Part shown: piece after piece, positions 5,742-30,917 of the stretch | Layout: the number at the start of each line of letters is the position of its first letter | How positions within the stretch are numbered: position 1 is the first letter of the stretch | Virus record (IMG/VR): IMGVR_UViG_3300047319_000532 | Length of the DNA stretch: 64,000 nucleotides | Origin: a virus | Strand: one strand, 5' to 3' | Notes under the pieces: model-generated | The model's input: the letters and a program-made list of their open reading frames with translations, nothing else | The model's database searches: none | Told to the model about the DNA's origin: nothing | Made by a program: the position numbers and the translations under genes

Positions 5742-5974
5742 GGATTGTCTTGAGAAACCGCCCGGACGCGCTTGTGATCGAAGGTGTGGAGTTTTCCGAT
5801 CGGGAGGCGTTCGAAAAGTGGCGGAGGCAGGTCAACAAGGCGGCCAGTGTCCTGTGGCCGCCGACGCCGAAGAAAGTGAAAAATGAGCAGGCTCTAAAAG
5901 CCCCTCAAAGAATTTTTGACGCCCCTGTTCAGATGCGTCCCTTGCGCCGGGATCTGCCTCCGCTGCAGGACTGA
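5738..5974 (+). CDS. hypothetical protein
   Basis: 78-aa ORF, ATGA overlap with the polymerase stop. Confidence 0.5.
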   Translation: MRIVLRNRPDALVIEGVEFSDREAFEKWRRQVNKAASVLWPPTPKKVKNEQALKAPQRIFDAPVQMRPLRRDLPPLQD

Positions 5975-6003
5975 TTATTTTTGCAAAAATTACAAATTGG
6001 TGT

Positions 6004-6040
6004 TTGACAACGTAATACGGCTGTCGTAGTGTCTGGACAT
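6004..6040 (+). promoter_or_regulatory. sigma70-like promoter, conserved class I element
   Basis: TTGACA(6004-6009)-17 bp-TAGTGT(6027-6032), with an AT-rich stretch upstream. The 37-nt element TTGACAACGTAATACGGCTGTCGTAGTGTCTGGACAT recurs at 8433 (+) and 58078 (-). Confidence 0.6.
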
Positions 6041-6472: not shown

Positions 6473-6715
6473 ATGACACCCGCAAAATTCTACGCGGACC
6501 TGAACCCGCGCTACGTCGTCACCAACATCAAGGAGCGGCGCTGGCGCGTGTTCATCAGCTTCGACGTCAAGGGCATCACCAAGCGCGAGCGCCTGATCAA
6601 CATCGTCGAGGCCGCTGGCAGCACCTCCAACCGCCGCGTCGCCGAAAACAAGGCCAAGCTGCTGCAGGACGTCTTCGACGAGCTGAACGGCATCTTTGTC
6701 GAGGTGAAGGTATGA
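6473..6715 (+). CDS. hypothetical protein
   Basis: ATG 6473 with RBS gaaggagaaaatcATG inside track ORF 6362..6715. Confidence 0.65.
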   Translation: MTPAKFYADLNPRYVVTNIKERRWRVFISFDVKGITKRERLINIVEAAGSTSNRRVAENKAKLLQDVFDELNGIFVEVKV

Positions 6716-6915
6716 GCGCGCAGCTTGACGTCACCGTCGAAGACCACGGCACGATCTGGCTGTTCCGCCCGCTCACGCAGGCGGCCAAGGAGTGGATCGA
6801 CGACAATGTCACCGGCGGCGAGGATTGGTTCGCCGGGGCGCTCGCAGTCGAAGCCCGCTTTGTGCAGGCGCTGATCGAGGGCATGCAGCTCGACGGTCTG
6901 GAAGTGGGGAAATAG
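6712..6915 (+). CDS. hypothetical protein
   Basis: 67 aa, ATGA overlap with the previous gene. Confidence 0.6.
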   Translation: MSAQLDVTVEDHGTIWLFRPLTQAAKEWIDDNVTGGEDWFAGALAVEARFVQALIEGMQLDGLEVGK

Positions 6916-6917
6916 TC

Positions 6918-7484
6918 ATGGGCTGGCTTTACATGCAATCGCTGGGCGGCTTCAAGAGCCCCAAGGCGTACCTCGACAATCAATTCACCTGCGGCGGCGT
7001 CAACAAGGTGCTGAAGTCGGCCCTGTGCGGCATGCGGACCTATTACGCCGCGGTCCAACACGGCGAAGGCGAGGTCTTCGCGGTGGTCTGCCTTGTGCAA
7101 TACAACAAGCGCGCCAAGGACGGCTACGTCTTCGGCTACAAGGACATGGACGAGACCATGGGCCCTTGCGAGGCCGACTGCCCGGCGGCCATCCTCGATC
7201 TGCTGACGCCAACTGAGTCGGCCTACGCGATCGCGTGGCGCGAGCGGTGCCGCAAGCATCTCGATCGGCCCAAGACGAAGGTCGGCGACATCGTCGTGTT
7301 CGAAGCTCCCATCCGATTCTCCAATGGCGCTCTTCACGCAGCCTTCAAGCTGATTGCGCCGTGGTGGAATCAGAAGCTGGTGCGCTTGCAAGCGATCGAC
7401 GGCGGAGGCGGTCTATACCGAATCCCCAACTGGAAAAAGCGCAGTTTCAGGATTGTTGGAGAGAATGAGCATGCGAAAGTTTGA
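6918..7484 (+). CDS. conserved-looking phage protein, function unknown
   Basis: ATG 6918 inside track ORF 6792..7484. Contains the motif FGYKDMDETMGPCEADCPAAILDLLTP. Confidence 0.65.
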   Translation: MGWLYMQSLGGFKSPKAYLDNQFTCGGVNKVLKSALCGMRTYYAAVQHGEGEVFAVVCLVQYNKRAKDGYVFGYKDMDETMGPCEADCPAAILDLLTPTESAYAIAWRERCRKHLDRPKTKVGDIVVFEAPIRFSNGALHAAFKLIAPWWNQKLVRLQAIDGGGGLYRIPNWKKRSFRIVGENEHAKV

Positions 7485-14941: not shown

Positions 14942-16057
14942 TCAGGCGGCGACCAGATCGAGCAGCTTGCCCGCGGCGCGCTCGATCGAGACGCGATCGT
15001 CCTGCCACTGGACGCCCTTGGCGGCGGCGGTCAGGCCGGTCACCACATCCCACACCGATTCCATCGGGCGGCCCTCTTCAGCCTCGTGGGAAGCCTGCGC
15101 GCGGGCGATCAGGCTCGAGGTGAACTTGCGCGACTTCAGAAACTCCTCGACGTTGTCCACCTTCTTATTCTGCGCGGCGATCAGTTTGGCCTCGACCGGG
15201 CTGGCCGCGCTGTGGCGATAGGTCTCGAGGACCGGCAGCGCCTGCTCGAGCCAACGATCGGGAGCGCCCGAGGTGTGGCGGATGGCGATGCGGCTGACGT
15301 CCTGCGCGCCCCAGACGATGCGGTTGCAGCAGGCGTAATCGAACAAGAAGGCGGTGATTTCGAGGATGCCAGCGCCGACTTCCGAGTTGCGGACGAAGAA
15401 ACCACGAGCCAGCGAGCCCTGACGACCACCGCGGCGGTTCGGCAGCACGATGCGGTTTTCCTCGTCGGCGAGGAACACGAACATATCGCGATCGCCCGCA
15501 TAGAGCGTGGTGTTGGCCTTGGTCACGTCGATGCGCTTGCCAAACTCGCCCGGCACGCGCCAGTCGCCGTCGATGCCATTGCCGAAGTTGGCCTTGAGCG
15601 CATCGGCGATCGTGGTGTTCCACACGCGGCCATAGTTCGGGCCAGTGGCGGCGTCGAGCGAGAAGCCCTCGTCGCCGCGGCGGAGGAGCAGGCCGACGTC
15701 GGCGACGTCGCGGGTGACCTTGAGGCCGAAGTTGACGCAGTCAGCAGCCAAAGACGGGTGTAGGGTGCGAAGGTAGCCAGCAGGCGCGCCAGCGAGGTTG
15801 GCCAGCTGGCCGAAGGCGAAGTGGGTCGGCGCGGCGGCGTTGCCCTTCTCGCCGACGATGTGCAGGCCGTTGTCGCCGTCCGGCTCGCAGGTGATCGAGC
15901 GGCTCGAGACGACCTTGCCCGCCGAGCGGACGCGCTGGTTGTAGCAATGTTCAGCCAGATCGTTGAGGTTGACGAAGCGTTCGTCGTTCGGGCGCGAAGC
16001 CCACTGGCGGGAAGCGGCGGTCAGGGTGGAGGTGTTCGCGAGAGCCATGATTTTCAT
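14942..16057 (-). CDS. DUF932 (phage/plasmid-like protein, TIGR03299-type)
   Basis: 371 aa. Blocks YGRVWNTTIADAL, TLYAGDRDMFVFL, LARGFFVRNSEVG and FLFDYACCNRIVWG match my memory of the DUF932 family. Confidence 0.8.
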   Translation of the reverse strand: MKIMALANTSTLTAASRQWASRPNDERFVNLNDLAEHCYNQRVRSAGKVVSSRSITCEPDGDNGLHIVGEKGNAAAPTHFAFGQLANLAGAPAGYLRTLHPSLAADCVNFGLKVTRDVADVGLLLRRGDEGFSLDAATGPNYGRVWNTTIADALKANFGNGIDGDWRVPGEFGKRIDVTKANTTLYAGDRDMFVFLADEENRIVLPNRRGGRQGSLARGFFVRNSEVGAGILEITAFLFDYACCNRIVWGAQDVSRIAIRHTSGAPDRWLEQALPVLETYRHSAASPVEAKLIAAQNKKVDNVEEFLKSRKFTSSLIARAQASHEAEEGRPMESVWDVVTGLTAAAKGVQWQDDRVSIERAAGKLLDLVAA

Positions 16058-16099
16058 CCTTCGGGTGTTTGCGGCGTCTTGCCGCGTTGAACTGTCTGT

Positions 16100-16128
16100 A
16101 CCTTAGAAGCTGCGTATTCGGCTGTCAA
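16100..16128 (-). promoter_or_regulatory. sigma70-like promoter (class II element) for the DUF932 gene
   Basis: Minus strand TTGACA(16128-16123)-17 bp-TAAGGT(16105-16100). Spacer GCCGAATACGCAGCTTC carries the shared CGnATACGC core. Confidence 0.55.
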
Positions 16129-16135
16129 TCTAATT

Positions 16136-16158
16136 CCACAGGATTTTAGATCCTGTGG
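16136..16158. promoter_or_regulatory. perfect 9-bp inverted repeat overlapping a DnaA box
   Basis: CCACAGGAT(16136-16144) TTTAG ATCCTGTGG(16150-16158), between the 16169 gene stop and the DUF932 promoter. Confidence 0.5.
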
Positions 16159-16162
16159 ATAA
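16154..16162 (-). promoter_or_regulatory. consensus DnaA box TTATCCACA
   Basis: Plus strand TGTGGATAA. It lies 25 bp upstream of the -35 at 16123-16128. Part of a 15-nt block CCTGTGGATAACTTT repeated at 16791-16805. Confidence 0.5.
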
Positions 16163-16168
16163 CTTTTT

Positions 16169-16441
16169 TCAGCGGTAGATGTTCAGCTTGTCGAGAGCGC
16201 GCTCGTCGTGCTTGGAGACGCAGCCTTGCAGGTTCTCGAGGATCCAGTTTGCGCCCTCGCCGGTGACCTGAAAGCCCTCGCGGGTGTTCTTGAGCAGGAT
16301 CGGGCCGACGCCGAAGACGACGCGCTGGTCGATGCTGCTGTCCCAGCCATAACGGATGTTGCCGTGGTCATCGAAGGCAAGGTCGCCCTTGGCCCCGTAG
16401 ATCAGGGCAGTGGCGATGCGATTGTGTTGGGTCTGGTTCAT
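16169..16441 (-). CDS. hypothetical protein
   Basis: 90 aa, RBS aggagaac (minus strand), 24 nt after the upstream gene. Confidence 0.65.
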   Translation of the reverse strand: MNQTQHNRIATALIYGAKGDLAFDDHGNIRYGWDSSIDQRVVFGVGPILLKNTREGFQVTGEGANWILENLQGCVSKHDERALDKLNIYR

Positions 16442-16465
16442 GCGTGTTCTCCTGTCGAGTGTGGT

Positions 16466-16708
16466 TCAGAAGCGGCTGCTGTCGATGCCGTGCTCAGCGG
16501 CGAGCGCCTTGCCTTCGGCGGTGAACTGGATCCAGACGCCATCATCATTGAAGGTCTTGATCAGGCCAGCCTGCTTGAGCTGGGTGAGGTTGCCGCGCTC
16601 TTCCTTGGAGCCGCCGACGTTGCCGCCGACCAGCGGCGTGCCGCTCCAGTTGTCGGCGTCATTGGCGTAGGCGAGGAAGACGCGAAGGGATTCGGTGGTG
16701 ATGGTCAT
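16466..16708 (-). CDS. hypothetical protein
   Basis: 80 aa, first gene of the leftward operon from the promoter at 16739-16767. Confidence 0.65.
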   Translation of the reverse strand: MTITTESLRVFLAYANDADNWSGTPLVGGNVGGSKEERGNLTQLKQAGLIKTFNDDGVWIQFTAEGKALAAEHGIDSSRF

Positions 16709-16812: not shown

Positions 16813-16841
16813 TTGACAGGCGCATACGCATGTCATAGGAT
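16813..16841 (+). promoter_or_regulatory. sigma70-like promoter (class II element), divergent from 16767
   Basis: TTGACA(16813-16818)-17 bp-TAGGAT(16836-16841). Spacer GGCGCATACGCATGTCA. Confidence 0.55.
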
Positions 16842-19921: not shown

Positions 19922-20025
19922 CCATGACTGACGCCCTGTGGCCGGTGCTGGCTGTTATCGTGCTGTTCAGTATCGGCGTTGGGCTCGAGGCGGCATACCA
20001 TGCCATTAAGAAGGCCCTGAAGTGA
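19918..20025 (+). CDS. tiny membrane peptide (35 aa)
   Basis: Hand-read MTMTDALWPVLAVIVLFSIGVGLEAAYHAIKKALK. ATGA overlap upstream and GTGA overlap with the TerL start. Confidence 0.45.
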   Translation: MTMTDALWPVLAVIVLFSIGVGLEAAYHAIKKALK

Positions 20026-21650
20026 CCACAATCAGCCTGCCCAGAACGATCGACGCCCACGCCCTGAAGCGGTCGATCGACAAGGAGCTGTGCGAGCGCA
20101 GTCTGGCTGATTTTGTCAAGATGGCGTGGAAGCACATCGAGCCCGGGCAGGTCTATTTTCACAACTGGCACATTGATTTCATCTGCCAGCATCTCGAGGC
20201 GATCGAGCGCGAGGAGCGCGTCGATGACGAAGTCTACAATCGTTTATTGATCAACGTCCCGCCCGGCATGATGAAGTCGATGCTGGTCGGCGTGTTCTTT
20301 CCGGCATGGCTGTGGGGGCCGCGCAACAAGGCGCACCTGCGCATCCTCGCCGTCAGCCACAACATCGAGCTGGCTGAGCGCGACAACATGCGGATGCGCC
20401 GCCTGATCGAGAGCGAGTGGTATCAGGATCTGTGGGGCGATCGCGTCATCCTGACCAGCGACCAGAACGCCAAGCGGCGCTACGAGAACACCGCCACCGG
20501 CTGGCGCATGGCGGTCGCCGCGGGCGGCGTCACCGGCTGGCGCGCCGACATCGTGATCGTCGATGACCCCCATAGCGTCAAGGGCGGCGACAGCGACGCC
20601 GATCGCCAGACCGTCTGCACGTGGTTCCGCGAATCCCTGCCGACCCGCCTCAACCGGCCCGACTCCAGCGCCATTATCGTGGTCATGCAGCGGGTGCACG
20701 AGAACGACGTCAGCGGCACCATCCTCGACGGCGACATGGGCTACGACCACATCATGCTGCCGATGCGCTTCGACCCCGACCGGGCCTGCGGGACCAGACT
20801 GGGCTACGAGGATCCGCGCCAGATCGACGGCGAGCTGCTGTTCCCGGCCCGCTTTCCGCTGGCGGTGGTCGATCGCGACGAGAAGATCCTCGGGCCCTAC
20901 GCCACCGCCGGGCAGATGCAGCAAGCGCCGACCCCTCGAGGCGGCGGCGTGGTCAAGGACGCCGACTGGCTGCTGTGGGTCCAGCCCGAGTACCCGCCGC
21001 TCGACTTTATTCTCGCCTCGATCGACACCGCCTACACCGAAAAGACCCAGAACGACTATAGCGCCATGACGGTGTGGGGCGTGTTCTCGGGCGAGCACGA
21101 CAAGATGACGACGCGCGGGGCCGATCGCTACGGCAAGCCGTTCCCGATGCCCAAGGGCGGCGGCCCTGAAGGCATGAGCAAGATCGTGCTGATGTTCGCA
21201 TGGCAGGACCGGCTGTCGATCCATGATCTGGTCAAACGGGTGGCCGAAACCTGCAAGTCGATGAAGGTCGATCGTCTGCTGATCGAGAGCAAGGCCAGCG
21301 GCATATCGGTGTCGCAGGAGCTGCGCCGCCTCTACGCGCATGAGCCATGGGCGGTCCACCTCATCAACCCGGGCAATCAGGACAAGCTGTCGCGGCTGCA
21401 CAGCGTCGAGCATTTCTTCGCCGAAGGTATGGTGTATGCGCCCAACAAATCATGGGCCGAGCTGGTGATCCGGCAGGTCGCCAGCTTTCCCAAGGCCAAG
21501 CACGATGATTTGACCGACACCGTCAGTCAGGCCATCCGCCACCTACGCGATTCCGGCCTGCTAATTCGCTCGGAAGAGCATCTGGCTGACCTTGCCAACG
21601 AGATGGATTTCAATAATGTTAAGCAGCCCCCGCCTCTGTATTCGGTTTGA
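20022..21650 (+). CDS. terL: terminase large subunit
   Basis: 542 aa. ATPase Walker A-like VPPGMMKS, Walker B IVIVDDPH and a C-terminal nuclease-type region (ASIDTAYT...KHDDLTDT). Confidence 0.9.
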   Translation: MTTISLPRTIDAHALKRSIDKELCERSLADFVKMAWKHIEPGQVYFHNWHIDFICQHLEAIEREERVDDEVYNRLLINVPPGMMKSMLVGVFFPAWLWGPRNKAHLRILAVSHNIELAERDNMRMRRLIESEWYQDLWGDRVILTSDQNAKRRYENTATGWRMAVAAGGVTGWRADIVIVDDPHSVKGGDSDADRQTVCTWFRESLPTRLNRPDSSAIIVVMQRVHENDVSGTILDGDMGYDHIMLPMRFDPDRACGTRLGYEDPRQIDGELLFPARFPLAVVDRDEKILGPYATAGQMQQAPTPRGGGVVKDADWLLWVQPEYPPLDFILASIDTAYTEKTQNDYSAMTVWGVFSGEHDKMTTRGADRYGKPFPMPKGGGPEGMSKIVLMFAWQDRLSIHDLVKRVAETCKSMKVDRLLIESKASGISVSQELRRLYAHEPWAVHLINPGNQDKLSRLHSVEHFFAEGMVYAPNKSWAELVIRQVASFPKAKHDDLTDTVSQAIRHLRDSGLLIRSEEHLADLANEMDFNNVKQPPPLYSV

Positions 21651-21663
21651 CAGGAGAACACCA

Positions 21664-22173
21664 ATGTCACGCTTCCCTCACAGCGTTGGGAATATCAAGT
21701 CTTCGATTGCTGATGCGCTCGACGAGACGCACCCGGGCGGCTACGGCGTGGGCGGCTTTGGCGCAGGGCCGACGCAGCCGGACGAAGGCCATCCGCTCCA
21801 GACGCCCGAGCAGCGCCAGAATATGGAGGAGCTGGCCCACGTCGCCGAGAATGATCGCATGCCGTCGATCCAAGGCGTCAATATGGACTTCGGCGCGGCC
21901 ATCCTGCTGATGGAGAGCGGTCTCAAGGTGCAGCGCGACGGCTGGAACGGCAAGGATATGTGGATCGCCCTGTCCGGCGTTAATGGAGCGCGCGAGGTGT
22001 ACAGCGAGAAGCTGTGGTCGAAGCCTGCCCGCGATTACGCCCGTCTGCAGCCCGGCGGCACGGTCAAAGTTTTGCCCTGCATCATCATGAAGACCGCCAC
22101 CGGCGAGCTGCTGATGGGTTGGCTCGCAAGCCAGAGCGACATGCTGGCCAAGGACTGGAGGGTTGTGCCGTGA
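21664..22173 (+). CDS. DUF2829 (Tad2-like) domain protein with a 75-aa N-terminal extension
   Basis: ATG 21664 inside track ORF 21592..22173. The C-terminal MDFGAAILLMESGLKVQRDGWNGKDMWIAL...IIMKTATGELLMGWLASQSDMLAKDWRVV is a close match to the DUF2829 signature. Confidence 0.8.
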   Translation: MSRFPHSVGNIKSSIADALDETHPGGYGVGGFGAGPTQPDEGHPLQTPEQRQNMEELAHVAENDRMPSIQGVNMDFGAAILLMESGLKVQRDGWNGKDMWIALSGVNGAREVYSEKLWSKPARDYARLQPGGTVKVLPCIIMKTATGELLMGWLASQSDMLAKDWRVVP

Positions 22174-22355
22174 CTGAAGACCAGCAGATTCAACTGCGCG
22201 TGCAGGCGCTCGCCTTCGCCAACAATCTGGCGAGCACGCTGCCGCCGCAGCAGGTCATCGAGGCGGCAGAAAAGTATTTTGCCTTTATGACAGGCGAAAA
22301 ACCGAAAAACGGAGAGGCGCGCCATGAGCCACGAGAGAGAAACCCCGAAGTTTGA
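22170..22355 (+). CDS. hypothetical protein
   Basis: GTGA overlap start, inside track ORF 22014..22355. Confidence 0.45.
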   Translation: MTEDQQIQLRVQALAFANNLASTLPPQQVIEAAEKYFAFMTGEKPKNGEARHEPRERNPEV

Positions 22356-22476
22356 TCCCAAGCCGCAGCGTCGCGAGCCTGAGCCCAAGCGCGCCGCGGC
22401 CAAGGAAGAGCCGCCGGTCGCCACCACGCGCGAGCGCAAGCCCAGATCGTGGATCGAAGGGCGGTTCAGGCAGTGA
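22324..22476 (+). CDS. hypothetical basic protein (50 aa)
   Basis: Hand-read ORF with RBS ggagagg. Overlaps the previous ORF out of frame, and its stop overlaps the next GTG start. Confidence 0.4.
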   Translation: MSHERETPKFDPKPQRREPEPKRAAAKEEPPVATTRERKPRSWIEGRFRQ

Positions 22477-22685
22477 GCGGCGAGTTTAAGCCGCCGCTGT
22501 TCACGCCGGTGCCGCCATTTGAGCCGGTGAAGCTGTGGATTGGCGTCTGTCGCGACGGGCCTTGGCAGGGCCTTCGCATGACAGCAGGTTCGCGATTTGT
22601 CTCGGCCCCTGAAGGCAATGAATATTGCAACGATGGGGCTGGTTTCTGGAATTGGGTGGAGCTGCATCATGACCGAAATCTCTGA
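22473..22685 (+). CDS. small protein with a GxCxDGPWxG module
   Basis: GTG 22473 inside track ORF 22449..22685. WIGVCRDGPWQGLRM resembles the modules in the ORF at 22953. Confidence 0.55.
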   Translation: MSGEFKPPLFTPVPPFEPVKLWIGVCRDGPWQGLRMTAGSRFVSAPEGNEYCNDGAGFWNWVELHHDRNL

Positions 22686-22956
22686 CAAAGTCGCGCCGAT
22701 CAGTGGCCTTGCTATCGATGTGGCGAAGACGCTGTGGTGCCCTTTTATCACGATCATTGCGGTGCCGCCGGTCAGCGGCACCCCCCATGTCGCCAACTCT
22801 CGCGGCATGCGGCTGGCCTACGGCGCGACTGATGAGGACATCCAGAAAAACATGAACTGCATCGCCACGCGCTGCATGTCGTGGATACCGGACGCCGTCG
22901 CGCCGACCACGCATGGCACTTGTCGGCTGATCACCGGCGTGGGAGTGAAAGCGTGA
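22669..22956 (+). CDS. Cys-motif protein (WCPF...CxxRCMSW...GTCRL), paralog of 63601..63825
   Basis: ATG 22669 inside track ORF 22597..22956. Confidence 0.6.
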   Translation: MTEISDKVAPISGLAIDVAKTLWCPFITIIAVPPVSGTPHVANSRGMRLAYGATDEDIQKNMNCIATRCMSWIPDAVAPTTHGTCRLITGVGVKA

Positions 22957-23657
22957 CTTATGCCGGGAGATGCTACGGCGGCCCATGGGATGGCCTGTGC
23001 TACGCCAACCACCTCCCGACCAAGGAGCTGTTGGCACCGGGCCCGATTTCGCTTGGCCAGTACCGGCATGACGCGACTGAAAAATGGCTGTGGGAGAGCA
23101 ATGACGTGCCGAATGTCTTTGAAAAGAACCTTAATGGCTTCCTGAACGGCGTCTGCCACGGCGGCCCGCTGCACGGCAAGGGCCTGACCCATGACAAGCC
23201 CGTCAAGGCGTTTGTCGCCACCAACACCGGCGGCTGGGATGGCGAATACCGTTACAACGATGAAATGCAGGATTGGCGGTGGAAAACCAGCAGCCAAGTC
23301 GAACTTGACGCCCTTGGCTGGGGCGGCTCCGATGTGAAGGAAAAGCCTATGAGCAGGTTAGCCGAAGAACAGGTTGAGATGCAGATCCGCGAAGGCGGCA
23401 AGACTGCGCCGCGTATTACGCCGGAAATTATCGACCAGCGCATCCGTCAGGTGAAATACTATCGCTTTCCTGACAGCACGCTGATGATCTGCGCCATCGA
23501 GCTGATGAACGGCTATCACGTCGTCGGCGAGGCTGGCTGCTCCTCGCCGATGACTTTCGATGAAACCATCGCCAAGCGCATCGCCTTCGACGACGCCCGG
23601 CGCAAGATTTGGGCGCTCGAGGGCTATGTGCTCCGCAACGTCCTGAAGGGTATGTGA
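22953..23657 (+). CDS. fusion of GxCxGGPxxG modules with an N4 Gp49 / Sf6 gp66-family domain
   Basis: GTG 22953 (track 22881). N-terminal GRCYGGPWDGLCY and GVCHGGPLHGKGL. C-terminal ...LMICAIELMNGYHVVGEAGCSSPMTFDETIAKRIAFDDARRKIWALEGYVL is the Gp49/gp66 signature. An internal ATG at 23349 could make this two genes. Confidence 0.7.
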   Translation: MTYAGRCYGGPWDGLCYANHLPTKELLAPGPISLGQYRHDATEKWLWESNDVPNVFEKNLNGFLNGVCHGGPLHGKGLTHDKPVKAFVATNTGGWDGEYRYNDEMQDWRWKTSSQVELDALGWGGSDVKEKPMSRLAEEQVEMQIREGGKTAPRITPEIIDQRIRQVKYYRFPDSTLMICAIELMNGYHVVGEAGCSSPMTFDETIAKRIAFDDARRKIWALEGYVLRNVLKGM

Positions 23658-23892: not shown

Positions 23893-26400
23893 ATGCCGCT
23901 TGTGCCGGGACTGTCACCCTCTATCCGCGTCACCAACGAGGGAGTGCCCGGCGCGATCGCCCCCGGCCTCTCAATCAGGCACGACAACGAGAATTACGAA
24001 GGCGCGCCAGAAGTCGATAAATCCGGCGCGGTCATCAAGATCGAGCATGCCGATGGATCGGTCACTGTCTCCCTCGACGGCAACCCGCTGATCGGCGCGC
24101 CGGAAGACGAGAACGCAGGCTGGTTCGACAACCTAGCCGACAAGATCGAAGACAACGAGCTGGCGCGCATCGCCGACGACCTGCTGCGCGGCGTCGATGA
24201 CGACCTGCAGAGCCGCAGCGACTGGATCGAGGAGCGCGCCCAAGGCATCAAGCTGCTCGGGTTCAAGATCGAGCTGCCCAACGTGTCCGGCTCGACCGAC
24301 GGCGCTCCGGTCGAAGGCATGTCCAAGGTGCGGCACCCGCTGCTGCAGGAGGCCGTGCTGCGTTTTCAGGCCAACGCCCGCTCGGAAATGCTGCCGACCG
24401 ACGGCCCGGTCAAGATCCGCGACGACGGCAATCAGGGCAATATCCAGCAAGACACGGTGGCCAATGCGCTCCAGAAAGACCTCAACCACTATCTTACGGT
24501 CACCGCCACTGAATATTATCCCGACACGGATAAGATGTTTCTGCTGCTTGGATTCGGCGGCACCTCGTTCAAGAAAGTTTATAATTGTCCGCTACGAAAT
24601 CGGCCCGTGTCTGAATCGGTTGACGCCAACGACCTCATCGTCAACGACGCCGCCACCGACCTAGCCAACGCCAAGCGCGTCACCCATCGCATCCAGATGA
24701 AGCCGTCCACCGTCAAGCGCATGCAGATCATCGGCGCTTACCGCGACATCGATCTGGCGACGCCGCTCGAGCCCAAGACCGACGCGGCCAAGGAGGCGGC
24801 CAACAACCAGCAGGGCATCACGCCCAGCTCGATGCGCCCGGATGACCGCAACCGGGAAATCTACGAGTGCTATTGCGAGCTGGACATCAAGGGCTACGAA
24901 CACAAGCACAAGGGCAAAGTGTCCGGCCTCGAGGTGCCCTATTGCGTCACCATCGACGTGTCGTCGAAGCAAGTGCTGTCGGTCACCCGCAATTTTGACG
25001 AAGAGACGCGAAAATTGCCGGTCGCGCGCGAGAATTTCGTCAAATACACCTATGTGCCCGGGCTGGGCTTCTACGACCTCGGCCTGCTGCACATCCTTGG
25101 CAACACCACCAACGCAACGACGGCTGCATGGAGAGAAATGCTCGATGCTGGCATGTTCGCCAGTTTCCCCGGCTTCCTGATGGCAGACACGGGGGCTCGC
25201 CAGAACACCAATATCTTCCGCGTGCCGCCGGGCGGTGGCGCGTTGGTAAAGACCGGCGGGCTACCCATAAATCAGGCCATCATGCCCTTGCCTTACCAGC
25301 CGCCGAGCCCGGCGCTGATGCAGCTGATCGACAACATGGTGCAGACTGGCCAGCGTGTTGGCGGCACCGCCGAGATGCCGGTCGGCGAGGGCAAGGCCGA
25401 CATCCCGGTCGGCACTATCCTCGCCCTGATCGAGCAGGCGACCAAGGTGCTGAACGCGGTCCACAAGCGCATGCACGCCGCGCAGGCGCAAGAATTTCGC
25501 CTGATGGTCCGCTGTTTCAAGGAAAACCCCAAGGCGTTCTGGCGCGCCAACAAAAAGCCAGCCACGCAATGGGACGAGCAGACTTTCCTCGCCGCGCTCA
25601 ACAACAACGAGCTGACGCCGCAGGCCGACCCCAACACCTCGAGCTACGCCCAGCGCATCATGAAGATCATGGCGCTCAAGCAGCTGCAGCAGCAGAGCCC
25701 CGGGCTCTATGACCCGATCGCGATCGACACCGCGGCGGTGTCGGCGCTCGGCTTCACCAATCCGCAACAGTTCATGGCACCTCCGCAGGCGCAGGCCGCG
25801 CCGCCGCCCGAGCTGCTCAAGCAGCAGGCCGAGACGCAGGCCAAGCAGACGCAGGCGCAGGCCCAGATGATCAAGGCGCAGGCCGACGCCAAGGTGGCCG
25901 ACGCCAAGAGCCAGAGCCTGCTGGCGGAGGCGCAGGGGCAAGGGCTCGCCGGTGGCGGGCAGGTGGACACCGAAGTCGATCGCCACATGGCCGAAACCAA
26001 GCGCATGGAGGCCGAGACCGGCCAGACGGTCGCCGAACACAACATGACGATCGCGCAAGCCAAGGCGCAGGCCGAATTGCAGAACGCTGGGACGCGCGCC
26101 AAGGAGCTGCAGCTGAAGGTGGCGGGCACGCATATGGACGACGCCCACCACCAAGAGGAGCTGCAGGCCAAAGCCAAGGAAAACGCCGTCAATCTGGCCA
26201 AAGAAGTGCTGCAGACCAAGGCGGAAGACCACCGCACCATGGCGATCGAGGGCGCGGCCCACCAGCACGAGCGCGGCATGCAGGCTGAAGCCCACGCCCA
26301 CGAGCACGCGCTGGCCGACAAGGACAAGGAAAAGGCGATCGCGGTCGCCAGAGCCCGGCCAAAGCCTGCCGCCGCCAAGCCGAAAGGCAAAAAGCCATGA
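23893..26400 (+). CDS. portal protein with long Gln/Ala/Lys-rich C-terminal helix
   Basis: ATG 23893 inside track ORF 23722..26400, 835 aa. Assigned by position after TerL, size, and a C-terminal ~200-aa coiled helical region reminiscent of a P22-type portal barrel. Confidence 0.75.
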   Translation: MPLVPGLSPSIRVTNEGVPGAIAPGLSIRHDNENYEGAPEVDKSGAVIKIEHADGSVTVSLDGNPLIGAPEDENAGWFDNLADKIEDNELARIADDLLRGVDDDLQSRSDWIEERAQGIKLLGFKIELPNVSGSTDGAPVEGMSKVRHPLLQEAVLRFQANARSEMLPTDGPVKIRDDGNQGNIQQDTVANALQKDLNHYLTVTATEYYPDTDKMFLLLGFGGTSFKKVYNCPLRNRPVSESVDANDLIVNDAATDLANAKRVTHRIQMKPSTVKRMQIIGAYRDIDLATPLEPKTDAAKEAANNQQGITPSSMRPDDRNREIYECYCELDIKGYEHKHKGKVSGLEVPYCVTIDVSSKQVLSVTRNFDEETRKLPVARENFVKYTYVPGLGFYDLGLLHILGNTTNATTAAWREMLDAGMFASFPGFLMADTGARQNTNIFRVPPGGGALVKTGGLPINQAIMPLPYQPPSPALMQLIDNMVQTGQRVGGTAEMPVGEGKADIPVGTILALIEQATKVLNAVHKRMHAAQAQEFRLMVRCFKENPKAFWRANKKPATQWDEQTFLAALNNNELTPQADPNTSSYAQRIMKIMALKQLQQQSPGLYDPIAIDTAAVSALGFTNPQQFMAPPQAQAAPPPELLKQQAETQAKQTQAQAQMIKAQADAKVADAKSQSLLAEAQGQGLAGGGQVDTEVDRHMAETKRMEAETGQTVAEHNMTIAQAKAQAELQNAGTRAKELQLKVAGTHMDDAHHQEELQAKAKENAVNLAKEVLQTKAEDHRTMAIEGAAHQHERGMQAEAHAHEHALADKDKEKAIAVARARPKPAAAKPKGKKP

Positions 26401-29400
26401 ACAGGGCCATCCGCTCGGCGCTGCTGACGGCGCACAACCTCTACAAGCACATCCCGCATGTCGTCGGCGGCGGCGCGCCGATGCACAATGGCGGCATACC
26501 GGAAGGCTACGCCGACGGCGGCGCGGTCGATCCGACCATGCCGGAGCCGGAGAAGACGGTCAAAGCCTACAAGCTGTTCCGGCACAAGAACGGCAAGCTG
26601 TTCCCGCTCTACGTCAACGCCAACCAAGAGGTACCGATCGGCAAGTGGCTGAGCGCCGAAGCCGGTCCCCCGGGCAAGGACAAAGGCAAGGTTAAAAGCA
26701 AGCTCGGCGATCTGGCCTACCGGCCCGGCTGGCACTCTGGCGACATGCCGGTGGCCACGCACATCGGATCCAAAAGCCAGAAGGGGCTCACAGCGCCCGA
26801 CACGCGCCCGCCCGAGCATGTCTGGGCGGAAGTCGAGCACCCGGCAGACGTCGATTGGCAGAGCGTCGCCCACAATCGGGCTCAGATTATGAAAAGCGGC
26901 CTGCCCAATCTGGCCACCGCGCACATTACTGATCAGGTGCCGCACGGCGGCCACTATCGCTACAAGACCAACCCCAACATGACCGGCAACTGGATTATCA
27001 GCGGCGGCATGAAGGTCAATCGCGTGCTGCCGCACGAGGAAGTGCAGGCGCTTAACCAGCAGCATGGCGTCTATGACCTGCCGCGGCGCGAGCCTCAAAG
27101 CTTTGAACCCGATGAACGCCCCGGGCGTGACGTCGGCGGCCAGCTGACTGCGCCGCCGCCAGCTCCCGCTAAGCCGCCGATCGATCTATCCCGCTATCAG
27201 GATGCGCCGACCCAGAAGCTGCAGGATATGCCATGGCGGCCACTGGCCGACGTCCACGCCGATCTGGGCCACATGAGCGAAATTCCGTCGCATGTGCAGC
27301 ATTTTGGCCGCTTCATGGACGAGTCTGCCGAGAAGGCCGCCACCAAGGGCCTGACGCCGCGCGACCTGCTCAAGGCTTACGCCATCACACGCGCCTCGAT
27401 CGGTCGCGGCGCGCTGCCGCGCAAGACGCTCGAGGCCAATGGCTGGCAAGTGCCCGAAGGCGTGGACTCGCTCCGCCCCGAAGGAGCCATGGGCGAGTGG
27501 CTGCATACGCCAATGGGGCAGGAATACTTGCACCACGCCGAGCGTGGGCGCGTGCACGAGGGCGCGATCGCCGACGCCGTGCGCAAATTCAGGCCATTCG
27601 GCAAGCAAAACGACACCGAAGGCAAGGCGCTGGCGTGGGCCGCGCATAACCTGCCCGGCATGGAAGGCCACGTCTCCAAGATGGTGCAGGCGTCGCGCCA
27701 CAAAGACGCCAACCCTACCCTGTGGCGGCACTTCATCAAGACGGTCCCGGGCGTCAACATCGCCAAGGCGGGCTTTCTGGGCTCGATGCTGGGTATGGGC
27801 AACCAGCCGACGCTCGATGCGCGCCAGCTCATCCTCAACACCGGCAGGCCAACCAGCGAGGCGGCCAAGCCGATGTCGCGCGTAGGCGGCGCAGAGGAGG
27901 CGGTCGATCGTCTGGCTGCACGCCAGAAGGCGCTGCAGCTCGGCATACCGGAAGATTTGGAGCCTTATTACCAGCACCTTGCCCATCATGCGATCTGGGA
28001 CAAGTCGGCAGGCGAACAAACGACGCACGCCGACCTGATGCACGCCATGCGCTACGCAGCCAAGGGCGGCAGCATCATCAAAACCTCGGGCGGGACGTGG
28101 CCTGATCTAGGCAGTCATGAACTTGCACGCTCCATGCACGCAGTTTTTGGAGGCGCAGGCGGTCTGGGAGGCTTGTGGAAGGGCGCGAGCGACCAAAATG
28201 TGCGCGAACAGCTGCTAAACACGCCGGATTACGCCAATCCAAACCCAGAATTGGTTAAAAAGGCGCTGGCGCTGGCTCAAAAGACCCATGGCGTCAACCA
28301 AACCTTCGATTCGAAGTCGGGAATGTCGTATTCCAACTTCAAAGGCGGCACCAGACCGATCAGTGATGTCACTTCGACAGTAGAACCGATCCCGGGCGTC
28401 ACGCCGAAGCCTGTAAAACAGCTGGATTGGCAGGATTTCATCCGAAAAAACAAGGGCGCGAGCCTAATTAACGTCGGCGGCGACCGTTCGCGGCTGGGAC
28501 GACTGACTCACATCAACGACAAGGCGTTAGGCTGGCCTGTGGACCTGCATGCGGGCCCGGATTACATGCGCGAGCCAAATAAAGGCGCGGTTTGGGCCAA
28601 TGCCCAGAGCAACGCCAGCGGTTTTGCCAACACGGTCAAGAAACTTGGCGAACACGGCAAAGTTTTTGGCGTTTACAAGCCAATGGGCCCGCAGAGCGTC
28701 GATTCATCCCGCCAGATGAGCGACGCCCTGATGTCGCAGATCGCCGCGCAGCCGCTGGATCCCAAAGTGGCGCAGGAATTGGACGCCGAACTGAAAAAAG
28801 GCGCGCATGAGCCAGACGCAGCGGCGCGTGCCAAGGCGGTGGCGTCGATGGAAAACTGGCCCGGCTTCAGCAACCCGCGCGAGGCGCGCGATCACCTGCT
28901 CAAATTGCCCGGGACCGCGCGCAGCTTGGTCGTCAAGCACCTAGACAAGGCCGGGTGGCATGCAAAAGGCGTCCCGCATATCGGGCACACGCGCGTTGCG
29001 CTGACGGATCCGGCGGCGCTGACGACCCCCGGCCACATGCTCGGGCACCGCATCGTCGAATTGACGGGCGGGCACCCGGAAGCCTCCGCGTTCGAGCACA
29101 ATACATATCCCGTGCCCACCGGCGGTAGGTATGTCGGCGACGTGCCCAACGTGCTGGCGCACTACGCCATGCCGGAAGTGCAGCGTGGCTTCGCGCTCAA
29201 GCATCATGCTGCAGGCATGACGCATCCGCTGTCTGAAGCAGCTGGAGCGCGGTCGAGTTTTATCAAAATGATGGGCGAGCAGAAGAATGTTCAGCCGATC
29301 AATGAGGAAATGGCGCAGGGCGTTGGGCACGCGCAGGAAGTGCAGCAGGGCTTGAAACAAGCTGGCGTGCCCGGCTACGCCGAAGGCGGCGTGGTCGATA

Positions 29401-30917
29401 AGGCGCTGGCCATGACTGCTCCCCGCGCCCTCACGCCATCCGGCCTCTACAGTCAGGCGGGCGACGCCGCGGCTGCGCTGCCGCAGGCCAAGGGCTCGCC
29501 GCAGCAGATGATCGCCAGCATGAAGGGCGTCAAGCCGGAGGAGCTGGCGCACGCCAACCCCATGGGCAAGTTCGGCGATCAAAAAAGCGTGACGCGCGAC
29601 CAGCTTGCCGGGCACATGCGCTTCAACCTGCCGCGGATCAACGAGACCACGCACAGCGACGACGACATCGACGAGGATGACGAGGGCGAGCGCGCAGGCG
29701 GCCCGAAATATGAGGAATACTCAATCCCCGGCGGCCAGAATTATCGCGAGTTGGTGATGCACACGCCCAAGACGCCGACGCCACCGGCGACGCCGGAGAT
29801 GCAGGCGGCGCTCAAGCACCAGAACGACACTTACTGGGCGGCTAATGGCTGGCACATGCGCAACCAGTATGCGCTCGACAAAGATAATCCCGAGAAGATG
29901 GCCGAATACAAGACCCTGCATGACGCCCAGACTGCGGCGCAGCGCCATTACAGCCAGCTGCAGCAGGAGCATGTCGCCAAGGCCAAAGCGAAAGACTATC
30001 ATTCCAGCCATTGGGATGAGCCCAATGTGCTGGCCCACCTGCGCATGTCCGATCGCAAGCTGCCCAATGGCGAGAAGGCGCTCCACCTCGAGGAGCTGCA
30101 GAGCGACTGGGGGCAGGGTGCGCGTGAGCATGGCGTGCGCGGCGCAGAGCCGGAGCCCGACTGGCAGAAGAACCTCGAGGAAATGCGCAGCCGCCGTGGC
30201 AAAGAGGGCTTTGCCGACCCGGCGGAAGAGGCGCGCTTTCAGAAGCTACACAAACATGAGTGGGCGGTGCCTGCCGGTCCACATATTGGCTCGACCAACG
30301 GCTGGACCGATCTGGGGCTCAAGAGGGCTTTGATCGAGGCGGCTCGAGGCGGTCACGATCGGCTGGCGTGGACGCCGGGCGAAGAGCATGCCGATCGCTA
30401 CGGGATGCAGAAGCACTTCAGCGAAATACGCTATGAGCCTAGCCGGAAGCATCTTTATGCTTTCCAGCATGCTGGCGCTGGCGCGTCGCCGCAGGAAGTC
30501 GAACCAGACCAGCTGCACCAGTATGTCGGTCGCGATCTGGCCAACCGGCTGCTGTCCACCGAACCGAAGAGCGGCGCGCATGTGCTCACCGGCGACGATC
30601 TGCGCGGCGGCGGCGAAGGCATGAAGGCGTATTACGACAAGCTGGTGCCGACCCGGCTCAAGGAGATTCTCAAAAAGTTGGGGCATGAGGCTGATTTTGA
30701 ACCAGTAACCATCAAACACCCTTCCAAACACGGCAAGCGCGGCGACGACGCCCAGACCACGCTGCACTCAGTCAAGCTGCCGAAAGAGTTGCGTGAGAAG
30801 ATCAAAAAGGGCCTGCCTGCGTTCAGCACCGGCGGCGATGTCGATATGGTGAACCGTGCTTTGCGTGTCACGGCCAAACCTGCCAAACTACACGCCCAAC
30901 GCGCTTTGGGGAGTTAG
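26397..30917 (+). CDS. giant (1506 aa) virion-module protein, function unknown
   Basis: ATGA overlap with the portal stop. Continuous ORF with no family I can name. See findings. Confidence 0.85.
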   Translation: MNRAIRSALLTAHNLYKHIPHVVGGGAPMHNGGIPEGYADGGAVDPTMPEPEKTVKAYKLFRHKNGKLFPLYVNANQEVPIGKWLSAEAGPPGKDKGKVKSKLGDLAYRPGWHSGDMPVATHIGSKSQKGLTAPDTRPPEHVWAEVEHPADVDWQSVAHNRAQIMKSGLPNLATAHITDQVPHGGHYRYKTNPNMTGNWIISGGMKVNRVLPHEEVQALNQQHGVYDLPRREPQSFEPDERPGRDVGGQLTAPPPAPAKPPIDLSRYQDAPTQKLQDMPWRPLADVHADLGHMSEIPSHVQHFGRFMDESAEKAATKGLTPRDLLKAYAITRASIGRGALPRKTLEANGWQVPEGVDSLRPEGAMGEWLHTPMGQEYLHHAERGRVHEGAIADAVRKFRPFGKQNDTEGKALAWAAHNLPGMEGHVSKMVQASRHKDANPTLWRHFIKTVPGVNIAKAGFLGSMLGMGNQPTLDARQLILNTGRPTSEAAKPMSRVGGAEEAVDRLAARQKALQLGIPEDLEPYYQHLAHHAIWDKSAGEQTTHADLMHAMRYAAKGGSIIKTSGGTWPDLGSHELARSMHAVFGGAGGLGGLWKGASDQNVREQLLNTPDYANPNPELVKKALALAQKTHGVNQTFDSKSGMSYSNFKGGTRPISDVTSTVEPIPGVTPKPVKQLDWQDFIRKNKGASLINVGGDRSRLGRLTHINDKALGWPVDLHAGPDYMREPNKGAVWANAQSNASGFANTVKKLGEHGKVFGVYKPMGPQSVDSSRQMSDALMSQIAAQPLDPKVAQELDAELKKGAHEPDAAARAKAVASMENWPGFSNPREARDHLLKLPGTARSLVVKHLDKAGWHAKGVPHIGHTRVALTDPAALTTPGHMLGHRIVELTGGHPEASAFEHNTYPVPTGGRYVGDVPNVLAHYAMPEVQRGFALKHHAAGMTHPLSEAAGARSSFIKMMGEQKNVQPINEEMAQGVGHAQEVQQGLKQAGVPGYAEGGVVDKALAMTAPRALTPSGLYSQAGDAAAALPQAKGSPQQMIASMKGVKPEELAHANPMGKFGDQKSVTRDQLAGHMRFNLPRINETTHSDDDIDEDDEGERAGGPKYEEYSIPGGQNYRELVMHTPKTPTPPATPEMQAALKHQNDTYWAANGWHMRNQYALDKDNPEKMAEYKTLHDAQTAAQRHYSQLQQEHVAKAKAKDYHSSHWDEPNVLAHLRMSDRKLPNGEKALHLEELQSDWGQGAREHGVRGAEPEPDWQKNLEEMRSRRGKEGFADPAEEARFQKLHKHEWAVPAGPHIGSTNGWTDLGLKRALIEAARGGHDRLAWTPGEEHADRYGMQKHFSEIRYEPSRKHLYAFQHAGAGASPQEVEPDQLHQYVGRDLANRLLSTEPKSGAHVLTGDDLRGGGEGMKAYYDKLVPTRLKEILKKLGHEADFEPVTIKHPSKHGKRGDDAQTTLHSVKLPKELREKIKKGLPAFSTGGDVDMVNRALRVTAKPAKLHAQRALGS

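Follow-up and report, generated by a model that had tools for sequence, protein, structure and literature searches.

A Tad2-family protein with an N-terminal tail predicted to be disordered, encoded close to an Acb4-like gene between the terminase and portal genes of a metagenomic phage, as a probable signal sponge

The DNA considered here, referred to as the window, is a stretch of 64,000 nucleotides (nt) from the IMG/VR virus record IMGVR_UViG_3300047319_000532, and the gene in question encodes a Tad2-like protein (of the family formerly called DUF2829) on the plus strand, directly behind the gene for the large terminase subunit, TerL. Its reading frame opens with ATG at 21664, runs for 169 codons and closes with TGA at 22171-22173; the position next to the terminase, as given in the original prediction for this DNA, is borne out, with the ATG lying 13 nt past the TerL stop codon (21648-21650). 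The TerL of the window is 82% identical to that of the closest related contigs, L017 and L028, and a block comprising GGAGA and the ATG is kept in the DNA alignment with contigs L028, L020 and L005. The features at this end of the terminase are the following:

20022..21650, plus strand: large terminase subunit TerL, 542 amino acids (aa), recognized by phrog_38 (E=2.1e-83)
21652..21656, plus strand: Shine-Dalgarno-like AGGAG, read from the sequence, 7 nt 5' of the ATG
21664..22173, plus strand: gene of the Tad2-like (DUF2829) protein, 169 aa, from its open reading frame (ORF) and a 75.5-bit match to PF11195
21664..21882, plus strand: N-terminal extension, aa 1-73, from alignments, the AlphaFold2 (AF2) model and composition
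21883..22170, plus strand: Tad2-like domain, aa 74-169, from PF11195 (aa 74-168), AF2 and Foldseek, with helix α1, a sheet of antiparallel strands and, at aa 105-138, an insertion of 34 residues

Membership of the window protein in the Tad2 family is confirmed by sequence comparison and by the predicted structure. In a hidden Markov model (HMM) search, PF11195 covers aa 74-168 with all 73 positions of its profile (1-73) and scores 75.5 bits (E=4.8e-21), far beyond chance at a gathering cut-off of 25 bits; the predicted resemblance of the C-terminal ~95 aa to DUF2829 is thereby upheld, and both motifs quoted in its favor, MDFGAAILLMESGLKVQRDGWNGKDMWIAL and MKTATGELLMGWLASQSDMLAKDW, are found verbatim in the protein. 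Among the sequences of the Protein Data Bank (PDB), phmmer retrieves SptTad2 (E=4.6e-12), HgmTad2/AcrIIA7 (2.1e-10), SPO1 Tad2 (6.9e-9), ModTad2 (1.2e-8) and pdAcrIIA7 (1.5e-8). An AF2 model of the monomer, built on 120 homologues, is confident over the domain (block means of 82-98 in pLDDT, the predicted value of the local distance difference test) and places helices at aa 76-84 and 157-161 and strands at aa 89-91, 100-104, 139-143, 149-151 and 165-167. In a Foldseek comparison of the model with the PDB, all 24 matches with E<=0.001 are Tad2/AcrIIA7 entries, with target-normalised template modelling (TM) scores of 0.66-0.86, and the next match after those 24 has an E of ~1. The fold predicted by AF2 follows the Tad2 pattern of an N-terminal α1, an antiparallel β-sheet, an insertion after β2 and a short C-terminal helix. 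The domain is basic (isoelectric point, pI, 8.85; charge +1.5), as opposed to an N-terminal tail with a charge of -6.

The residues named in structural papers were mapped onto the window protein by sequence alignments. The contacts of SPO1 Tad2 with 1''-3' glyco-cyclic ADP-ribose (gcADPR), namely W25, N26, W73, S76, T78 and D79 (bioRxiv 10.1101/2023.05.01.538930), correspond to W94, N95, W153, S156, S158 and D159 of the window protein, and the gcADPR pocket of HgmTad2, formed by W21/N22/G23, M76, S90, T92 and D93 (PMC10680739), corresponds to W94/N95/G96, M142, S156, S158 and D159. All canonical residues of the gcADPR pocket are therefore kept, with one conservative change from Thr to Ser at S158, and these positions are invariant or nearly so among the 120 homologues; judged from the alignments, the canonical pocket for ADP-ribose (ADPR) signals is intact. 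The earlier assignment to the Tad2-like family is thus supported by the HMM match, the predicted fold and the conservation of the pocket alike, and because these three lines support the family, the role of a nucleotide sponge is the best reading of the gene.

A second pocket is found in Tad2 proteins of the HgmTad2/SptTad2 type, in which an insertion of 35-41 residues between β2 and β5 forms a binding site for cyclic dinucleotides (PMC10680739); the insertion of the window protein counts 34 residues, against 41 in HgmTad2 and 24 in SPO1 Tad2. The HgmTad2 pocket for cyclic GMP-GMP (cGG) and cyclic GMP-AMP (cGAMP) comprises R31, N85, F70 and S47, mutation of which abolishes binding, with S47 contacting the phosphate (PMC10680739). 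In the window protein, R31 is replaced by S104, N85 by M151 and F70 by V136, and S47 is kept as S119. Binding of cGG or cGAMP in the manner of HgmTad2 was rejected by this residue mapping and is not expected, since R31, N85 and F70 are replaced. At the same time, the insertion is conserved across the 120 homologues (S104, W118, A126, G132, A134, V136, L137, P138 and C139 are invariant or nearly so), which suggests from sequence that it has a function.

These observations bear on the alternative that survives best, namely that the protein is a sponge of the same fold for a different signal, such as histidine-ADPR (His-ADPR, of type II Thoeris), N7-cyclic ADPR (N7-cADPR, the signal in Thoeris of type IV) or else a cyclic nucleotide, mono- or di-, held in a second pocket that the insertion would form, in which case 3'-cyclic ADPR (3'cADPR) would not be the ligand, or not the sole ligand. 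The specificity of Tad2 homologues varies widely: Thoeris (types I, II and IV), CBASS and Pycsar are inhibited by them in differing combinations (PMC12393519), and there are homologues with a pocket for each of two classes of ligand; the strong conservation of the 34-residue insertion, which comes close to the long type, and the retention of the phosphate-contacting Ser as S119 fit such a sponge as well. However, the base-specific cGG contacts of HgmTad2/SptTad2 are lost (S104, M151 and V136), whereas the canonical gcADPR pocket is kept in full apart from the conservative T-to-S change, and a sponge for a different signal is thus considered rather unlikely, even if it has to be taken seriously beside the preferred one for 3'cADPR.

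The N-terminal extension is regarded as translated because its ribosome-binding site and ATG are conserved, its motifs are conserved, the GC content at third codon positions is 0.77, and gene calls of 169 aa are made on other contigs. An identical 169-aa gene is called on the 67,074-bp metagenomic contig L129, which holds the same phage as the window, and also on contig L130, with at least 20 similar places besides. The view that aa 1-73 lie outside the protein, and that translation from M66 or M74 yields a standard short Tad2, draws on a 104-aa version in the database (P0001) that starts at M66, on in-frame ATGs at codons 66 and 74, the latter preceded at 7 nt by a weak AAGG, and on a headless form of AcrIIA7 that occurs naturally in other genomes. 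However, the contig behind P0001 is 3,014 bp long and starts within the gene, and the shorter start implied by P0001 was rejected as an artefact of truncation, given that complete contigs yield 169 aa. Moreover, a strong AGGAG with 7-nt spacing stands before the ATG at 21664 and is kept in relatives, the third-position GC value applies in frame over the N-terminal region, and the N-terminal motifs are kept at the protein level despite synonymous DNA differences between phages, so that a protein without the extension is very improbable. A second, short isoform from an additional internal start may nevertheless be made beside the full-length protein.

The extension was described in the original prediction as rich in Gly, Pro and Glu, 75 aa long and not typical of the family. 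The composition stands (G 14%, P 10% and E 8%, with a pI of 4.85 and a net charge of about -6), and the length is corrected to 73 aa. In the AF2 model the extension is mostly disordered (block-mean pLDDT of 51-72), with short helices at aa 13-19 and 48-60. It contains the motifs NIK(S/P)SIxxALDExHP at aa 10-24 (followed in the motif form by TGP), GGYGVGxFGAxP at aa 25-36, GHPLQTPEQRxNMExL at aa 42-57 and (E/N)DRMP at aa 63-67, all of which recur in homologues from other contigs; for example, the extension alone finds homologue P0005 by blastp with E=3e-10 (at a database size of 1e8). In the DNA, the motif blocks are kept with synonymous differences between phages and are separated by segments rich in insertions and deletions, a pattern which indicates, from sequence, that the blocks are under purifying selection. 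When a profile of the extension was run against 1.84 billion representative proteins, only four were found, all of them Tad2-like and all already in the query alignment. This disordered type of tail, a mosaic of motifs, is rare and confined to one small lineage.

Searches for a known domain in the extension were negative: neither the 73-aa extension nor the homologous extension of P0005 has a Pfam match even at E<=10, and none is found in NCBIfam. Sequestin (PF21825), a helical sponge domain of 60-80 aa that is often fused to Tad2 (bioRxiv 10.1101/2025.07.12.664507), was considered as an identity for the extension and rejected on the lack of a Pfam match at E<=10 and on a model that is mostly coil with pLDDT 51-72. 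The extension motifs were not found elsewhere in the six-frame ORFs of the window, as might have been expected of shared protease sites or targeting signals. An apparent tblastn similarity of the tail upstream of P0002 in contig L002 is not real, since it crosses a stop codon and is of weak identity, and a literature search on disordered extensions of phage Tad2 returned nothing relevant, its matches concerning the p53 'TAD2'.

As for the claim that such an extension is not typical, it holds against the short characterized proteins SPO1 Tad2 (89 aa) and HgmTad2 (~103 aa) and fails against the nearest homologues: in 89 of 120 the domain is preceded by more than 40 residues and in 28 of 120 by 15 or fewer; the two best PHROG profiles likewise include ~90 residues N-terminal to it. 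The additions of the nearest homologues (e.g., P0012, P0018, P0053, P0020, P0035 and P0066) mostly look folded, belong to several recurrent types and carry no Pfam annotation; one type, '...YRGW...GYISWSP..F..AY', is present in ~49 of the 120, and another reads 'KKPVVIEAEQ...GEFYPCKPDIF'. By analogy with Sequestin, which came to light as a fusion partner, they could be undescribed sponge or accessory domains.

The same type of tail is shared by two very different Tad2 domains. In contig L002 (7417-8339), two Tad2-like genes stand in tandem, the first encoding 195 aa with the tail type of the window and a short, divergent 'AWSGR' domain, and the second a 112-aa orthologue of the window domain. 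The closest relative, L028, also has two Tad2-like genes (5274-6038 and 6532-7263), its extra copy bearing a 130-residue Pro-rich repeat tail ('PDQGLPGRPAR' three times) and an altered pocket ('GWTGRN' and 'SPDDV'). The altered sequences suggest that the extra paralogues of L002 and L028 have different ligand specificities. The sizes of the Tad2-like proteins within the lineage are 169 aa (window), 232, ~250, 254 and 274 aa, and such variation in copy number and tail length among close relatives fits a gene engaged in an arms race. Because the same tail type sits on a different domain in L002 and a different tail on the L028 paralogue, the tail can be seen as portable; together with the purifying selection, these data would agree with a module that moves between proteins and serves targeting or regulation.

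A functional module of this kind, as opposed to a passive linker, could act either in cis as a mask or selectivity filter over the basic pockets and groove, or through short motifs that dock a partner; as a definite proposal this is unlikely to be right in either form. The masking version would possibly make the tail a disordered counterpart to the pdAcrIIA7 head domain, a 48-aa N-terminal addition of two long helices that blocks the binding of single-guide RNA (sgRNA) by the core (PMC13133391); this acidic head is dispensable for the tetramer and modulates what the basic groove of the core binds (PMC13133391). In the docking version, the partner might be the capsid or the portal and the sponge might be delivered together with the DNA, which would fit the location in a packaging block. 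A modulatory role would be the most economical guess, because the tail is acidic opposite a basic core and pdAcrIIA7 offers a precedent; docking and delivery in the virion seem less likely.

The same precedent raises a further alternative, that of an AcrIIA7-like anti-CRISPR in which the groove of the tetramer binds trans-activating CRISPR RNA (tracrRNA) and blocks the loading of Cas9, with the tail acting as the head domain. HgmTad2/AcrIIA7 and pdAcrIIA7 are significant matches in sequence and fold, and pdAcrIIA7 too has an acidic addition on a basic core, as does the window protein with its tail of -6 and domain of +1.5. However, mutation of pdAcrIIA7 K58, K66 and K71 (HgmTad2 K11, K19 and K24) abolishes RNA binding (PMC13133391), and RNA binding of the AcrIIA7 type was rejected for the window protein, in which two of these three essential lysines are acidic (K58 is replaced by E84 and K66 by D92) and only K71 is kept, as K97. 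Furthermore, the N-terminal regions have no sequence similarity, the match to 9kzr covering aa 75-168 only; AcrIIA7 recognizes type II-A tracrRNA and does not bind type II-C tracrRNA (PMC13133391), and there is no sign that the host is of type II-A; among named organisms, the nearest homologues are those of Alphaproteobacteria and Planctomycetes. An anti-CRISPR role is accordingly given hardly any credence, and the sponge role is retained in what follows.

Between the Tad2-like gene and the portal gene lie the following features:

22170..22355, plus strand: 61-aa ORF with a GTG start, 91-93% identical in L017 and L028, called on L129
22324-22476, plus strand: 50-aa ORF with no family match
22473..22685, plus strand: 70-aa ORF with a 'GVCxDGPWxG...W.W' module, called on L129, no Pfam match
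22669..22956, plus strand: 95-aa Cys-rich ORF, called on L129, with a homologue at 6208-6528 of L028, no Pfam match
22953..23657, plus strand: Acb4-like protein of 234 aa with PF13876 at its C-terminus, its start following the gene calls of P0121 and L129
23893..26400, plus strand: portal protein of 835 aa, recognized by PF23899 SU10_portal (E=4.7e-15) and phrog_1216 and called on L129

The Acb4-like gene, which did not figure in the original prediction any more than the conserved placement of both genes did, lies ~780 nt downstream of the Tad2-like gene on the same strand. PF13876 (Phage_gp49_66) matches 22953-23657 at 72.7 bits, where the cut-off is 27 (E=3.7e-20), and this family is that of the anti-CBASS sponge Acb4, whose founder, SPO1 Acb4, binds 3'3'-cGAMP (bioRxiv 10.1101/2024.12.30.630793). 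The AF2 model of the neighbour is of low confidence (mean pLDDT 48), its C-terminal domain having the order α-β-β-β-α of the dsRBD-like Acb4 fold; with Foldseek, the top 13 matches are all chains of 9e4w (SPO1 Acb4 with 3'3'-cGAMP), at target-normalised TM scores of 0.67-0.76. From a model of this kind, the Acb4 fold match is supportive only, and a search by sequence from the neighbour protein did not reach the SPO1 Acb4 structure, with E=0.61 even when a profile was used. The N-terminal half of the Acb4-like protein contains two 'GxCxGGPW' modules. In the wider form 'G.C.GGPW.G ... W.W', the module occurs once in the 70-aa ORF (22473-22685) and twice in 22953-23290, has no Pfam match and, in relatives, precedes the Acb4 domain as one copy.

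The TGA of the Tad2-like gene overlaps the GTG start of the next ORF (GTGA), a sequence arrangement that suggests translational coupling of the Tad2-like gene with the 61-aa ORF, for which no Pfam or NCBIfam match is found. The 70-aa ORF has homologues at the same position in contigs L001, L002, L005 and L028. By their location, the small ORFs between the two sponge genes are candidates for anti-defence genes.

The arrangement was compared across 48 related loci, drawn from contigs of metagenomes, viral contigs of IMG/VR and a single phage record of GenBank. A Tad2-like gene stands directly after TerL in every locus of the lineage that covers the TerL end (TerL 61-82% identical), and on all contigs that reach far enough downstream the Acb4-like gene and then the portal gene come next, no more than a few small ORFs separating the Tad2-like from the Acb4-like gene; the order TerL, Tad2-like, Acb4-like, portal is therefore conserved across this phage lineage. 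In bacterial genomes, the Tad2-like and Acb4-like domains are adjacent on the same strand in 12 of 80 loci, and in homologue P0102 they are fused. A protein of Pasteurella phage Pm86 is a detectable homologue (33.6% identity, E=6e-10), and this Acb4-Tad2 fusion blocks both Thoeris and CBASS, each of type I (bioRxiv 10.1101/2025.07.12.664507). A distant relative, MW202675 (58% identical in the TerL protein), has a different cargo between TerL and portal, including a 'dctp deaminase dutpase', and no DUF2829; because other cargo occupies the interval there, the interval is a cargo slot and not a fixed structural module. The search for a cultured close relative, by megablast of 12 kb, gave one phage record only, at 72.6% identity within TerL. 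In one record, IMGVR_UViG_3300046559_000446 (138,254 bp; L005 and L012), two variants of the TerL-Tad2-Acb4-portal arrangement lie ~69.5 kb apart; the genomes of two related phages were probably assembled into this record head to tail or as a chimera, the spacing being about one genome length.

Another alternative is an accessory of DNA packaging or head assembly without a role in anti-defence, kept for its fixed place between terminase and portal: the position after TerL is conserved in all members of the lineage that were examined, the gene is tightly coupled to its neighbours and the region immediately upstream has no promoter-like site, but MW202675 lacks DUF2829 from this interval, the domain occurs in many unrelated contexts and prophages (76 of the 80 genome loci have no TerL or portal match nearby), the ligand-pocket residues are strongly conserved and the other recognizable gene found there comes from a second family of known sponges, so that such an accessory can practically be set aside in favor of the sponge.

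The wider window has genes for an exonuclease, a DNA polymerase, a Prim-Pol/helicase and a small terminase, along with those for the portal of SU10 type, for virion proteins and for a tail fibre that has an S74 chaperone; the window's GC content is ~61%, and no tRNAs were found. Directly after the portal, a protein of 1,506 aa (26397-30917, plus strand) has only a phrog_30118 match at its N-terminus and none in Pfam or NCBIfam; at its position in L002 lies a gene of 738 aa with weak ART-PolyVal and DUF7178 matches. The 1,506-aa protein may be an internal or ejected virion protein. The best sigma-70-like match within 14-32 kb, a putative promoter, is located at 16813-16841 on the plus strand (TTGACA, 17 nt, TAGGAT; 10/12), where it heads the rightward block of terminase, sponge and structural genes just past the divergent junction with the leftward genes at 14942-16708.

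Taken together, the window protein is likely to be a Tad2-family signal sponge that sequesters an ADPR-derived signal of Toll/interleukin-1 receptor (TIR) enzymes and is paired with an Acb4-like sponge. If the homologues of solved structure are a guide, its domain of 96 residues at the C-terminus would assemble into a homotetramer, and its inter-protomer pockets would bind an ADPR-derived alarm molecule from host TIR enzymes of the Thoeris type, most likely 3'cADPR (1''-3' gcADPR). With the signal sequestered, the effector of the defence would never be switched on, and we infer this inhibition, as well as the tetramer and the identity of the ligand. The neighbouring Acb4-like sponge would take up the cyclic dinucleotide of CBASS, the two genes forming an anti-signalling island between terminase and portal. 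The tail of 73 residues, translated and conserved as it is, would be a lineage-specific add-on, and our best guess as to any function is that it modulates the basic core of the sponge or tethers a partner.

Several points weigh against this interpretation. Ligand specificity in the Tad2 family cannot be read from sequence, and the precise ligand is not callable here because the tested homologues differ in the systems that they inhibit (PMC12393519). Nothing indicates Thoeris in the host; a genome scan for a host gave matches of at most 62% identity, in the domain only and across several phyla, and no host was assigned. Expression is a further difficulty: no promoter-like site was found immediately 5' of the gene, which is tightly packed among packaging genes, with its 13-nt gap after TerL and its overlapping downstream start. 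Abundant production of sponges early in infection is suggested by the authors of the Tad2 study (bioRxiv 10.1101/2023.05.01.538930), and late co-expression with packaging genes would be awkward for that reason. Finally, the tail could interfere with the function of the sponge, as the head domain of pdAcrIIA7 does with sgRNA binding.

The Tad2 family and the pairing of Tad2 with Acb4 are already known, and the tail is rare and lineage-specific. The present analysis adds a well-supported member of the family from a poorly sampled, high-GC phage lineage that is known only from metagenomes, and the conserved sponge cargo slot between terminase and portal offers a practical landmark for finding further anti-defence genes. 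Moreover, the disordered tail and the unannotated N-terminal domains of the homologues are cheap candidates for a 'fusion partner' strategy in the style of Sequestin. The view of how sponges act is unchanged by these results, unless the tail regulates or targets the protein.

Among known systems, SPO1 Tad2 (gp34.65; PDB 8SME/8SMF/8SMG), the founder of PF11195, has the same domain and predicted fold as the window protein, in which its contacts W25, N26, W73, S76 and D79 are kept and T78 becomes Ser. Unlike SPO1 Tad2, to which it is ~31-34% identical, the window protein has a longer insertion between β2 and β5 (34 residues versus 24) and an acidic, disordered tail of 73 aa, and its gene sits in the packaging module of a phage of 61% GC. 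The best matches in both sequence and structure are HgmTad2 and SptTad2 (PDB 8KBI-8KBM, 8WJC and 8WJD; target-normalised TM 0.69-0.76), Tad2 proteins with a long insertion in which gcADPR and cGG/cGAMP each have a pocket of their own (PMC10680739). With these the window protein shares the residues of the gcADPR pocket and the phosphate-contacting Ser (S47, here S119), and its insertion of 34 residues comes close to their long type, whereas it lacks the guanine-reading R31 and N85 as well as the stacking F70, and the N-terminal tail is present in the window protein only.

Of the solved members of the family, pdAcrIIA7 (PDB 9KZR) alone offers a precedent for an N-terminal extension, its DUF2829 core likewise following an acidic addition. 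In contrast to its head domain, the tail of the window protein is predicted to be largely disordered apart from two short helices, it does not resemble the head in sequence, and the positions of the RNA-binding K58 and K66 are acidic. The Acb4-Tad2 fusion of Pm86, an instance of the Tad2/Acb4/Sequestin pattern, resembles the window in that Tad2 and Acb4 modules are deployed together, here ~780 nt apart. However, in the window the two modules are encoded by separate genes, four small ORFs apart, and each carries an unannotated N-terminal addition, namely the disordered tail in the Tad2-like protein and the two 'GxCxGGPW' modules in the Acb4-like protein.

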